Part shown: positions 40,717 through 42,602 of the stretch, piece after piece | How positions within the stretch are numbered: position 1 is the stretch's first letter | Layout: each line of letters opens with the position of its first letter | Program-made: the position numbers and the translations under genes | Source of the DNA: an uncultured Gammaproteobacteria bacterium | Lineage (GTDB): Bacteria > Pseudomonadota > Gammaproteobacteria > GCA-001735895 | Length of the DNA: 57,465 nucleotides | Assembly (NCBI GenBank): GCA_964196115.1 | Contig: CAXMRQ010000082.1 | Coordinates: forward strand, 1-57,465 | Direction: 5' to 3' | Notes under the pieces: model-generated | What the model saw: only the letters and a program-made list of their open reading frames with translations | The model's database searches: none | What the model was told of the DNA's origin: nothing

Positions 40717-40977
40717 CAGGAGTCTGTCGGACTTAGGTGGTCGTCACGATATGTACAGGATGTACGGTAGTAGAACACCAACAGTAGGCGCTTTTAGGCG
40801 CCAACAGTAGGTGCCCTTAGGCAATGCAGGAGCAATTGTCGAGGGAAAGACCGGTTTGAGTCAGATTTTGAGTTCTTTTAAGGAAAATAGTAGTTCTATT
40901 TGACGAAAAAGAACTCAAAATATGGCCAAATCCGGCTTTTCCGCAGCAGACCACAGCCTAAGTCCGACAGGCTCCTA
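40717..40977. mobile_element. MITE family 1, subfamily B, copy carrying the 93-bp GGA cassette
   Basis: 23-bp inverted repeat with 2 mismatches (GCCAGGAGTCTGTCGGACTTAGG / CCTAAGTCCGACAGGCTCCTAGC); same internal architecture as subfamily A. Confidence 0.88.
40776..40821 (+). repeat. Two tandem 23-bp micro-units
   Basis: CACCAACAGTAGGCGCTTTTAGG then CGCCAACAGTAGGTGCCCTTAGG; single copies at 7330-7352 and 23999-24021. Confidence 0.9.
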
Positions 40978-40982
40978 GCCTC

Positions 40983-41549
40983 CTATGCCGCTGTTTTGTG
41001 GCGATTTTCGGCACCATTGACAAAATCAGCCGACTGTCGCATTGCCGGGAAATCGAGCGGCCTGGCTGCTGTCTTCCACCACAAAGGATTGGTCTGCTGG
41101 GTAATTAACTGATCGTGATCGTGAAAAGCGTAGCGCTGTTTTTGCTGTTTTAAAAAGCCCCAGGAGCTGGCTTTCGGGCCATGTATGAAAAGCGTCCAGA
41201 CCTCTATGTTGTCGATCAAATTGATGCGGTGGAATATGTTGCCGTTGATCCAGTTGAAACGCCCGCTACGCACCATTCGTGTTTGTAGCGTATTGTTATG
41301 AGTCGAATCTGCCATTCGTATTTCTTCATATTTTCCACTTAAGATTAAAGAAAAAGCCGACTTCCAGGGATGGTTGTGTAGACCACGCCCCGGATCGCTG
41401 GCAACAAAACGATGTAGATAAACCTGATAGTTAAAAGGTAATTTTAACAGGTGATATCGCTCTAGATAGGGTCGTTGATCCACCCCGTTAATAATGCGAC
41501 AGCGGCAGTATGAACTAATTTTATACAATATTTGACCGATTATAGACAT
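40983..41549 (-). CDS. Uncharacterised cupin-fold (DSBH) putative metalloprotein, 188 aa
   Basis: PYLERY, YLHRFVASDPGRGLHNHPW, ILSGKYEE, FHRI, WTLFIHG, WGF; RBS GAGGA before ATG 41549 (the longer ORF-track start overlaps the WYL gene). Confidence 0.75.
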   Translation of the reverse strand: MSIIGQILYKISSYCRCRIINGVDQRPYLERYHLLKLPFNYQVYLHRFVASDPGRGLHNHPWKSAFSLILSGKYEEIRMADSTHNNTLQTRMVRSGRFNWINGNIFHRINLIDNIEVWTLFIHGPKASSWGFLKQQKQRYAFHDHDQLITQQTNPLWWKTAARPLDFPAMRQSADFVNGAENRHKTAA

Positions 41550-41597
41550 CGTGATTCCTCTGCATTGTTGATAGCTGCTATTATCCGCCTGCGAGTG

Positions 41598-41612
41598 GCT
41601 CATAAGATGAGC
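41598..41612. promoter_or_regulatory. Palindromic operator between the WYL and cupin genes
   Basis: GCTCAT-AAG-ATGAGC; on the minus strand it is followed after 12 bp by GATAAT (-10-like) towards the cupin gene. Confidence 0.65.
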
Positions 41613-41633
41613 TATAGAGAAATAATTTGAATA

Positions 41634-42602
41634 ATGGATAGAACCGAAAGATTTTATATTATCGACCAGATGCTGTCTAACCAGCGTCTGGTAACTCGCG
41701 TGCAGTTCCTTGAGGCGCTTGAAGTTTCTCCGGCTACATTCAAACGTGATATGGAATATATGCGTGATCGACTCGCAGCACCGATAGTATGGGATCGTGA
41801 AAACCGGGGATATCGGTACGACAATGACGAGGCGGGCGCAAATCATTATCAATTACCGGGTTTGTGGTTTAATACCAGTGAAATCCTGGCATTGCTGAGT
41901 ATGGATGCGCTGCTGGATAATTTGCAGCCGGGAATATTGTCCAGTCATGTTAAGCCGCTGCAATCGCGCATCCGCCTGTTACTCGATAAGGGTGATCACA
42001 GCGCCGAAGAAATTTCGAAACGTATTCGCATCTTACCGGTAGCAGCGAAGAACTACCGAAGTCAAAATTTTCAGCTTGTTAGCCAGGCATTACTGACACG
42101 CAAGCGCCTGCAAATATGTTATTACAGCCGCCAGCTAGATAGCGAAAGTAATCGTCAGATATCACCGCAACGTCTGATCTACTATCGCGATAACTGGTAT
42201 CTCGATAGCTGGTGCCACTGGCGCAAAGGGCTGCGCAGTTTTTCCATAGACGCGATTAAACAGGTGGAGATACTGGCAGAAACGGCGAAGGATATTAATG
42301 AACAGTATTTGAATGATGAACTGGCGAGTGGTTATGGAATTTTTTCGGGTGCCGAAACGCATCAGGCCGAGTTACGGTTCAGTCCCGAAATCGCACGCTG
42401 GGTATCACGAGAATTATGGCATTCGCAGCAGCAGAGTTGCTATGATGAGTCTGGTTTTTATATTTTGCAAATCCCCTACAGTCAGGATACCGAGTTGATA
42501 ATGGATATCCTAAAACACGGCCCCGAAGTTGAAGTATTGCAACCTCCCGATTTGCGTCATAAAGTCGGCCAACGAATCAAGGCGATGCAAGCATTATACT
42601 AG
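41634..42602 (+). CDS. HTH-WYL-WCX transcriptional regulator (YafY/PafB/DriD-like)
   Basis: LEVSPATFKRDMEYMR wHTH; RQISPQRLIYYRDNWYLDSWC...RSFSIDAI WYL domain; DILKHGPEVEVLQPPDLR WCX. Confidence 0.93.
   Translation: MDRTERFYIIDQMLSNQRLVTRVQFLEALEVSPATFKRDMEYMRDRLAAPIVWDRENRGYRYDNDEAGANHYQLPGLWFNTSEILALLSMDALLDNLQPGILSSHVKPLQSRIRLLLDKGDHSAEEISKRIRILPVAAKNYRSQNFQLVSQALLTRKRLQICYYSRQLDSESNRQISPQRLIYYRDNWYLDSWCHWRKGLRSFSIDAIKQVEILAETAKDINEQYLNDELASGYGIFSGAETHQAELRFSPEIARWVSRELWHSQQQSCYDESGFYILQIPYSQDTELIMDILKHGPEVEVLQPPDLRHKVGQRIKAMQALY

Follow-up and report, generated by a model that had tools for sequence, protein, structure and literature searches.

WYL-domain transcription factors that activate genes after DNA damage have been described in several bacteria, and we cite them here from portions of the published accounts. 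In Caulobacter crescentus, DriD is the activator of an SOS-independent damage response; its sites overlap the −35 region at a fixed distance from the −10 box in promoters without a −35 box, and it activates a divergent operon of unknown function and not driD itself (PMC13004042). DdaA of Acinetobacter (Moraxellaceae) is a WYL activator that has replaced the SOS response, with the motif CGWCA-N5-TGWCG (PMC12392091) and a regulon, published in 2025-26, that includes recA, recC and CRISPR-Cas (PMC12392091, PMC13010146); among basal lineages, where LexA is present alongside it, DdaA controls few genes, its own included (PMC12392091). In Mycobacterium smegmatis, SiwR binds single-stranded DNA (ssDNA) and activates adjacent putative metalloenzyme genes after genotoxic stress (PMC10693628). 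Here we examine a 57,465-nt contig of an uncultured gammaproteobacterium (CAXMRQ010000082.1; this whole stretch is referred to as the window), in which an HTH-WYL-WCX transcription factor gene (P0002, 41634-42602, + strand; open reading frame (ORF) of 322 aa) is divergent from a cupin gene (P0001, 40983-41549, − strand; ORF of 188 aa with an ATG start) across a spacer of 84 bp (41550-41633). A first-pass annotation had picked out the two genes and the distance between them correctly, and had proposed that they form an undescribed two-gene system of their own. The best explanation of the whole, which we regard as probably correct, is that the WYL gene encodes an activator of the DriD/DdaA kind that would serve recA, recC, in a few genomes cas genes, and the putative metal-enzyme cupin.

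The evidence that carries this explanation lies in the spacer and in its counterparts elsewhere. When the spacers of 20 loci from the same genus were aligned, two conserved blocks stood out, TGCTATTATCC and a palindrome that we predict to be an operator, GGCTCATAAGATGAGCT (GGCTCAT-N3-ATGAGCy, 17 bp arranged as 7-N3-7), which occupies positions 41597-41613 of the window. Its consensus across the genus is GGCTCAy-N3-rTGAGCy, and it is found in all 20 spacers, one of them (L008) with a single mismatch; two of the loci, L001 and L003, have identical spacers and probably represent one genome (L numbers denote loci, G000 is the source genome of the window and other G numbers are comparison genomes). 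Allowing one mismatch in G000 produced noise (5+4 occurrences, compared with 6+6 for the control), and zero-mismatch sites were used afterwards. There are three of these in G000, in the WYL/cupin spacer, upstream of recA and upstream of recC, where by our own arithmetic about 0.2 would be expected by chance. Across the genus, at least one site is present in 41 of 41 genomes, while the backwards control pattern occurs in 3 of 41.

We placed the roughly 100 distinct sites of the genus by their coordinates (31 at known cupin loci) and by clustering the genes that flank the 69 others, with the identities of the flanking genes confirmed by Pfam. Altogether 38 sites belong to WYL/cupin loci, 30 to recA, 21 to recC and four to cas3 or cas1, and seven lie elsewhere; the 69 clustered sites comprise RecA (30), RecC (21), further WYL/cupin loci (7), Cas3 (2), Cas1 (2) and other or unassigned neighbours (7). 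Counted by genome, a perfect site is present at the WYL/cupin locus in 36 of 41, at recA in 30 of 41 and at recC in 21 of 41, and in front of cas3 or cas1 in three. In G033, whose cupin gene has been relocated, the cupin still has a palindrome, with N11 and GATAAT after it, and a second copy stands at the WYL gene; since the moved cupin carries its own operator copy, it appears to be a target in its own right. From these site distributions, recA, recC and the divergent cupin make up the likely regulon in this genus, joined in a few genomes by cas3 or cas1. Two conserved genes share the operator-bearing spacers, a 336-aa protein without a Pfam family that is divergent from recC in 18 loci (L054, 458-1465, −) and a 260-aa membrane-like protein, likewise without a Pfam family, that is divergent from recA in 16 loci (L053, 1621-2403, +), but the −10 box faces recC and recA.

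The position of the palindrome within these promoters is nearly fixed. The gap between the palindrome and an nATAAT hexamer is 10 nt in 29 of 30 recA loci (11 nt in the other) and in 21 of 21 recC loci, and all 19 of the 19 pattern-matching cupin loci have such a gap, of 10 nt in 6 and of 11 nt in the other 13; four cas promoters and the relocated G033 cupin have the same arrangement. In the window, the predicted −10 box of the cupin gene (GATAAT on the − strand, 41580-41585) lies 11 nt from the palindrome and has no −35 box. A −35 hexamer, which would stand 17 bp before the −10 box, would have to lie inside the palindrome, so that TTGACA is impossible there; a simple promoter scan of the spacer called no promoter, as expected where a −35 box is missing. 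Because the palindrome takes the same promoter position before the cupin, recA and recC, we conclude from the sequence that the cupin is very probably a target of the WYL regulator and that its control is of the DNA-damage kind. The first-pass annotation had suggested induction by DNA damage or infection, and the part of this suggestion that concerns DNA damage is supported. The two features that mark the DriD/DdaA type, a palindrome before recA or other repair genes and, as in DriD, a fixed layout at the −35 position without a −35 box, both appear to be present here.

On the other strand, we predict an extended −10 element for the WYL gene (TGcTATTAT, 41576-41584, +), and TATTAT stands 11-12 nt upstream of the palindrome in 7 of 7 among the loci listed. 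The palindrome would then span roughly +7 to +23 of the transcript of the WYL gene, and a site just inside the transcript suggests either that it has no effect on the WYL gene or that it allows self-limitation. The cupin gene also has a ribosome-binding site that can be read from the sequence (GAGGAA on the − strand, TTCCTC on the + strand, 41555-41560), and purine-rich stretches occur at the same position in the orthologous spacers.

To whom the palindrome belongs can be judged from WYL orthologues outside the genus. Those of four other families (G361, G231, G116 and G059), with 44-53% identity, share the recognition helix ATFKRD(L/M)EY(L/M)R and have GGCTCA-N5-TGAGCC beside their own gene, while WYL orthologues with another recognition helix, which lie beside type I-F cas1 (for example that of G133, with 42% identity), do not have the palindrome. 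This co-variation of helix and palindrome indicates that the WYL protein is the likely binder. The subclade with the different helix directly adjoins type I-F cas1 at L154 (1084-3095, G133), L181 and L185. Two sites of other kinds were considered and kept only as leads. In G251, GGCTCCAACAAGGAGCC-N10-TATTAT precedes the cupin homologue; three other GGCTCC-N5-GGAGCC sites in that genome lack a following −10-like hexamer, and neither recA, recC nor a WYL gene is close to them. In G133, a DdaA-type sequence, ACGACAGGGTTTGTCGT, lies 76 nt upstream of the cupin homologue; it recurs in near-identical form at two other places in the genome, among unremarkable genes (FtsZ-like, response regulators, an HD protein), but not at the WYL gene.

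The protein itself fits the HTH-WYL-WCX class. Pfam detects the WYL (3e-19) and WCX (2.5e-16) domains together with a weak HTH_11 match below the cut-off (0.0011), PADLOC matches it to generic WYL models only (2e-39), and it is the product of the one WYL-domain gene found in G000 (a single PF13280 match). Its best solved relative by sequence is PafBC (3e-13), and an AlphaFold2 model built from a 21-row alignment has a predicted local distance difference test score (pLDDT) of 59, with the N-terminal helices shown at low confidence. We propose that this protein would act as a DNA-damage activator of the DriD/DdaA kind, probably as a homodimer. In this mechanism ssDNA arising from damage, or incoming or phage DNA, would bind the WYL domain and switch on DNA binding; the protein would recognise GGCTCAy-N3-rTGAGCy and, if the DriD structures are a guide, would once bound to its site help RNA polymerase at promoters that have no −35 box, and the cupin would be a damage-induced protein.

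Comparison with the described systems sharpens this proposal. The likeness to DriD lies in the HTH-WYL-WCX build, the palindrome over the −35 region, the fixed distance to the −10 box, the two-way promoter and the DNA-repair targets; it differs in its motif, CGAC-N7-GTCG as opposed to GGCTCAy-N3-rTGAGCy here, and in that recA and recC are not named among DriD targets in the available portion of PMC13004042. Nor are its divergent genes cupins, as the cupin profile phrog_4786 matches none of 14 control genomes, Caulobacter included. DdaA shares with our system its occurrence in Gammaproteobacteria, the geometry xxWCA-N5-TGWxx (GCTCA-N5-TGAGC here) and a regulon of recA, recC and cas genes, whereas the outer bases of the half-sites differ; the likeness seen is one of motif and regulon. 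SiwR is likewise a WYL activator of adjacent putative metalloenzyme genes of unknown substrate (PMC10693628), but its targets are DinB/YfiT-like, its site is at the −26 region, and it is an actinobacterial protein with a local regulon that does not include recA. By analogy, the system described here is best read as one that has the motif geometry and regulon of DdaA together with the promoter layout and divergent-target logic of DriD.

Several observations weigh against this reading. First, in five genomes from other families the strict palindrome is found at the WYL gene in 4 of 5, at recC in 1 of 5 and at recA in 0 of 5, and the link to recA may be particular to the genus, or imperfect sites may exist elsewhere. 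Second, G000 has two LexA homologues above the family cut-off (C104:11646-12236 and C46:3525-4121), so that recA may be under dual control. Third, DriD is not among the solved relatives of the WYL protein at E ≤ 0.01, and in Acinetobacter the DdaA motif lies, according to the part of PMC12392091 that we cite, about 50 bp upstream of the start site, in contrast to the position over the −35 region here. Fourth, co-occurrence of the cupin and the WYL subfamily outside the genus is weak, with the WYL subfamily in 8 of 19 cupin-bearing and 97 of 379 cupin-less genomes. Lastly, the preference for activation over repression rests on promoter layout and analogy, and a repressor placed over the −35 region would yield an identical conserved site.

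This last point leads to the alternative that survives best, although we consider it unlikely: the WYL protein could be a repressor of the CapW/BrxR kind that leaves the palindrome on binding ssDNA, and the cupin would still be damage-induced, by de-repression. The palindrome covers the −35 region and would sit inside the WYL transcript, both of which are classic positions for a repressor; ssDNA-sensing WYL repressors have been published (PMC11662680, cited in part), and BrxR is a weak sequence match to the WYL protein (2.7e-4). On the other hand, there is no room for a −35 hexamer in any of the roughly 70 promoters, and an unaided sigma-70 promoter would need one after the repressor has left, and the 10-nt spacing in 50 of 51 recA and recC promoters is a rigidity that would be expected of a factor that touches RNA polymerase, as shown for DriD (PMC13004042). 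Activation by the WYL protein is the interpretation that we retain.

We then considered how far the regulator and the cupin belong together. Loci were taken from a genome-set search, since a single-protein scan of genome contigs gave one locus. Of 36 other genomes of the genus, 33 have the cupin, compared with none of the 24 genomes of other families in the same draw, and at 18 of the 20 related loci it has the WYL gene as its adjacent, divergent neighbour. The exceptions are G021, in which a gene for a 605-aa protein without a Pfam family lies between the two on the strand of the cupin (L022, 1777-3594, +), and G033, in which the cupin and WYL genes are on different contigs. With the operator before them, the 605-aa gene and the cupin seem to make up a two-gene unit; in G033, the upstream neighbour of the WYL gene (contig C41; L128, 3-1307, −) has an eCIS core domain (contractile injection system). 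Within the related loci the WYL regulator is better conserved than the cupin (65-86% versus 59-69% identity).

Outside the genus, the two genes part company. A class-wide search with alignment A2, which consists of 62 distant relatives of the cupin, recovered cupins in 19 further genomes of 400 scored (one genome was unscored). No WYL homologue was detected by tblastn within 1.5 kb of the cupin at any of 20 loci outside the genus, nor did Pfam find a WYL domain among 86 ORFs neighbouring these cupins at 19 of the 20 loci, L032 being left out. The neighbours at these loci are heterogeneous, and the thiol-linked genes near some of these cupin homologues (rhodanese, MAPEG, glyoxalase, DoxX) are spread too thinly to serve as evidence. 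The WYL subfamily, for its part, is present at full length and 40-58% identity in 108 of 401 genomes, and none of the 27 WYL-orthologue loci fetched elsewhere has a cupin homologue; the neighbours there include ARPP-1 (3 loci), RmuC, a PDDEXK nuclease, CoiA, phosphoadenosine phosphosulfate (PAPS) reductase and Cas3 or Cas1. Unpublished genomes G177/G075 enter a count of 22/400 for the A2 search, the row of neighbours for L050 and the figure of 108/401, and no conclusion depends on them. The ARPP-1 proteins (PF20208) adjoin WYL orthologues in three different families (L161, L165 and L182). Divergent small genes beside the WYL orthologues of G361 and G231 were tried as remote cupins and rejected, with an hhalign probability below 1%.

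The adjacency of WYL and cupin genes is confined to one genus. The expectation of a conserved pairing is borne out within that genus (18 of 20 loci) and fails elsewhere (0 of 20 cupin loci and 0 of 27 WYL loci), and the picture of a self-contained two-gene module is not supported, both because the regulator has a small regulon and because the adjacency occurs in one genus only. Judging from the distribution of its predicted sites, we have reasonable grounds to see the WYL protein as a DNA-damage activator with a small regulon and not as a private partner of the cupin.

Cupins share two hallmarks that supply the metal ligands, the HxH of motif 1 and the histidine of motif 2. In the 188-aa protein, H58-N-H60 and H107 are present and the glutamate that usually follows HxH is absent, so that a three-His site is likely, with H58, H60 and H107 as candidate metal ligands on the basis of family conservation. 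The motifs given by the first-pass annotation (LHRF-x3-D, LHNHPW, GKYEE, FHRI, WTLF and WGF) can all be read in the translation. In alignments A1 and A2, from which the invariant residues were drawn, R31, H46, D52, H58, P61, H107 and F121 are invariant across the 62 distant relatives, and H60 (at least 90%), W62, E76, the PYLERY block and the WGF block are nearly so. An AlphaFold2 model of the protein is a beta-barrel (pLDDT 76), and Foldseek returned at least 500 PDB matches to it at E ≤ 0.001, the matches listed being cupins. The model supports the assignment of a cupin fold with an HxH...H site. This fold and the conserved residues make a small mononuclear-metal enzyme the most likely identity of the protein, with a putative three-His site (H58, H60, H107) lined by R31, H46 and D52. 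As to its chemistry, our best guess, held with low confidence, is an O2-dependent reaction that converts either a nucleotide-related compound or a small reactive metabolite, for example a thiol.

The family to which the cupin belongs is large and rich in phage proteins. Close relatives comprise 283 matches (54-93% identity), nearly all unnamed and from metagenome-assembled genomes of Gammaproteobacteria, and an exhaustive search of the wider family gave 4,004 representative clusters at E ≤ 0.001, of which 1,071 are at E ≤ 1e-10. The protein matches no Pfam family at E ≤ 1, and matches phrog_4786, labelled 'cysteine dioxygenase', with an E-value of 1e-34 over residues 17-146, a match that recurred in the genome scan. 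Homologues with 33-38% identity are found in 89 phage records, whose hosts include Mycobacterium (51), Gordonia (7), Xylella (6), Burkholderia (5) and Pseudomonas (5), and in the ESM Atlas its closest clusters consist of viral hypothetical proteins; the first-pass annotation was thus right to link the pattern to uncharacterised phage proteins.

The label carried by these phage relatives raises the alternative that the cupin is an ordinary cysteine dioxygenase (CDO) of sulfur metabolism and that its link with the WYL gene is accidental, which we think improbable. Both PHROG and RefSeq label the phage relatives cysteine dioxygenase, the top Foldseek match is the putative CDO 4qm9 of Bacillus subtilis (E 8e-7), and the glutathione-linked adhC and fghA genes lie next to the cupin. 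Against this stand the lack of any match to Pfam CDO_I (CDO type I, PF05995) at E ≤ 1 and the absence of sequence relatives in the PDB at E ≤ 10, whether the search was made with the single sequence or with the 62-sequence A2 profile. In a full structure scan with VIA-align, dozens of cupin subfamilies score alike, with Z of 9.3-11.2 across about 100-135 residues, including auxin-binding protein (11.2), DddK (10.5), mercaptosuccinate dioxygenase (10.2) and rat CDO (9.7); the thiol dioxygenases (CDO, mercaptosuccinate and ergothioneine dioxygenase), at 9.5-10.2, are level with many other, unrelated cupins. That the operator travels with the cupin in G033 is a further argument against an accidental link. 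The 'cysteine dioxygenase' label on this family is without support from any profile search.

Fusions and phage neighbourhoods offer another view of the family. Among its longer members, a phosphomevalonate-kinase/dNMP-kinase-like domain is present in two proteins, one of which also has an MTS methyltransferase domain, and further domains are a dATP/dGTP pyrophosphohydrolase (1), major facilitator superfamily (MFS) transporters (2) and an antirepressor (1). In four phage records that we opened, the cupin homologue lies among early or replication genes, with neighbours such as WhiB and DnaQ; MazG, a kinase and a DNA methyltransferase; or a C5 methylase and DUF159. These associations are hints, no more, of a link to nucleotides or DNA. 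Phage members of PHROG 4786, such as gp82 of mycobacteriophage Rey and the protein of Achromobacter phage phiAxp-2, belong to the same family as the cupin and share its core motifs; they differ in that the four records show no WYL neighbour, whereas the bacterial cupin is a chromosomal core gene with a damage-type promoter. Cupin homologues also lie near C5 cytosine DNA methylase genes in Marinobacter phage PS3 (L157) and in a prophage-like region of G311 (L051), two elements that are mutually unrelated, and that of phage PS3 is near DUF159 (SRAP) as well.

The surroundings of the locus are those of a stable chromosomal neighbourhood. On one side is fghA (NCBIfam TIGR02821, 2.9e-123), preceded by adhC (TIGR02818, 1.4e-194), and on the other panC (TIGR00018, 1.5e-96), with panB next. 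Of 20 related loci, 15 preserve the order panC-WYL<>cupin and 8 have fghA after the cupin; the G+C content of 0.42-0.48 is similar to that of the neighbouring genes, with no compositional break. The locus is a case of conserved synteny, neither an insertion nor a defence island, and the description of the pair as inserted between fghA and panC was mistaken. Between the convergent fghA and cupin genes, a hairpin with U/A-rich flanks (40865-40921) is probably a two-way terminator that ends the transcripts of both; RNA folding of 40850-40985 (− strand) gave −50.1 kcal/mol with a z of −5.0, and 0 of 200 shuffles were equally stable. Immediately 3′ of fghA, CCAACAGTAGG(C/T)GC occurs twice, 23 nt apart (window 40778-40814).

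These surroundings bear on the suggestion that the cupin is an anti-phage effector and the pair a small infection-triggered defence system, which we regard as quite improbable. It is common for a WYL regulator to guard a defence system, three genomes have the operator before a cas3 or cas1 gene, and WYL orthologues elsewhere adjoin ARPP-1, PDDEXK nuclease, RmuC and Cas genes. The cupin, by contrast, is a near-universal core gene of its genus (33 of 36) that lies among housekeeping genes, and it matches none of the PADLOC models; its family is mostly carried by phages, which fits an aid to replication or repair better than an anti-phage weapon. The association with a defence island that the first-pass annotation had proposed to test did not materialise, as the neighbours adhC, fghA, panC and panB are housekeeping genes and the cupin has no PADLOC model.

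It is highly improbable that the palindrome belongs to another regulator, such as a LexA homologue, with the WYL gene beside one copy by chance, since, for all that G000 has two LexA homologues and recA is a classic LexA target, 36 of the 41 genomes of the genus have the site at the WYL gene, among them G033 with its cupin-less WYL locus, the helix-sharing WYL orthologues of four other families have it too, and no lexA is found among the flanks of the 69 palindrome loci. No exact CTGT-N8-ACAG box was found near recA in G000. The second of the two LexA homologues (L138 and L139) is closely preceded, before its start codon, by a near SOS box, CTGTTGTATATTACAC.

As regards novelty, the claim that the system was undescribed stands for the cupin and not for the regulator, as WYL activators of DNA damage with recA, recC and cas regulons have been reported in the form of DdaA (PMC12392091, PMC13010146, as cited in part). 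The main text of these two DdaA papers contains no mention of a cupin or dioxygenase. Literature searches returned nothing relevant on the WYL domain with cupin, nothing relevant among the matches listed on WYL with cysteine dioxygenase, and only giant viruses on phage hypothetical proteins with cysteine dioxygenase and cupin. What is new is the operator, the DriD-like layout in Gammaproteobacteria that keep LexA, and the recruitment of a phage-rich cupin family into a recA/recC regulon.

These findings extend the WYL-driven damage response to an uncultured genus of marine sediments and to several other gammaproteobacterial families. They also give a first regulatory context, co-regulation with recA and recC, to a large, uncharacterised and mostly phage-borne cupin family, reveal the database label 'cysteine dioxygenase' of its phage members as unsupported by profile searches, and make the function of the cupin testable by damage-induction, metal and substrate assays. 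Quite tentatively, we suggest that this family may represent an unrecognised three-His metalloprotein of the DNA-damage response, whose role would be to clear or convert a compound that is a danger to DNA under replication, either a small thiol or one derived from nucleotides. If true, such a role would explain why a bacterial cupin has a WYL promoter of the recA type, why hundreds of phages carry the cupin in replication modules, and why it is sometimes fused to dNMP-kinase-like, dNTP-pyrophosphohydrolase or methyltransferase domains.

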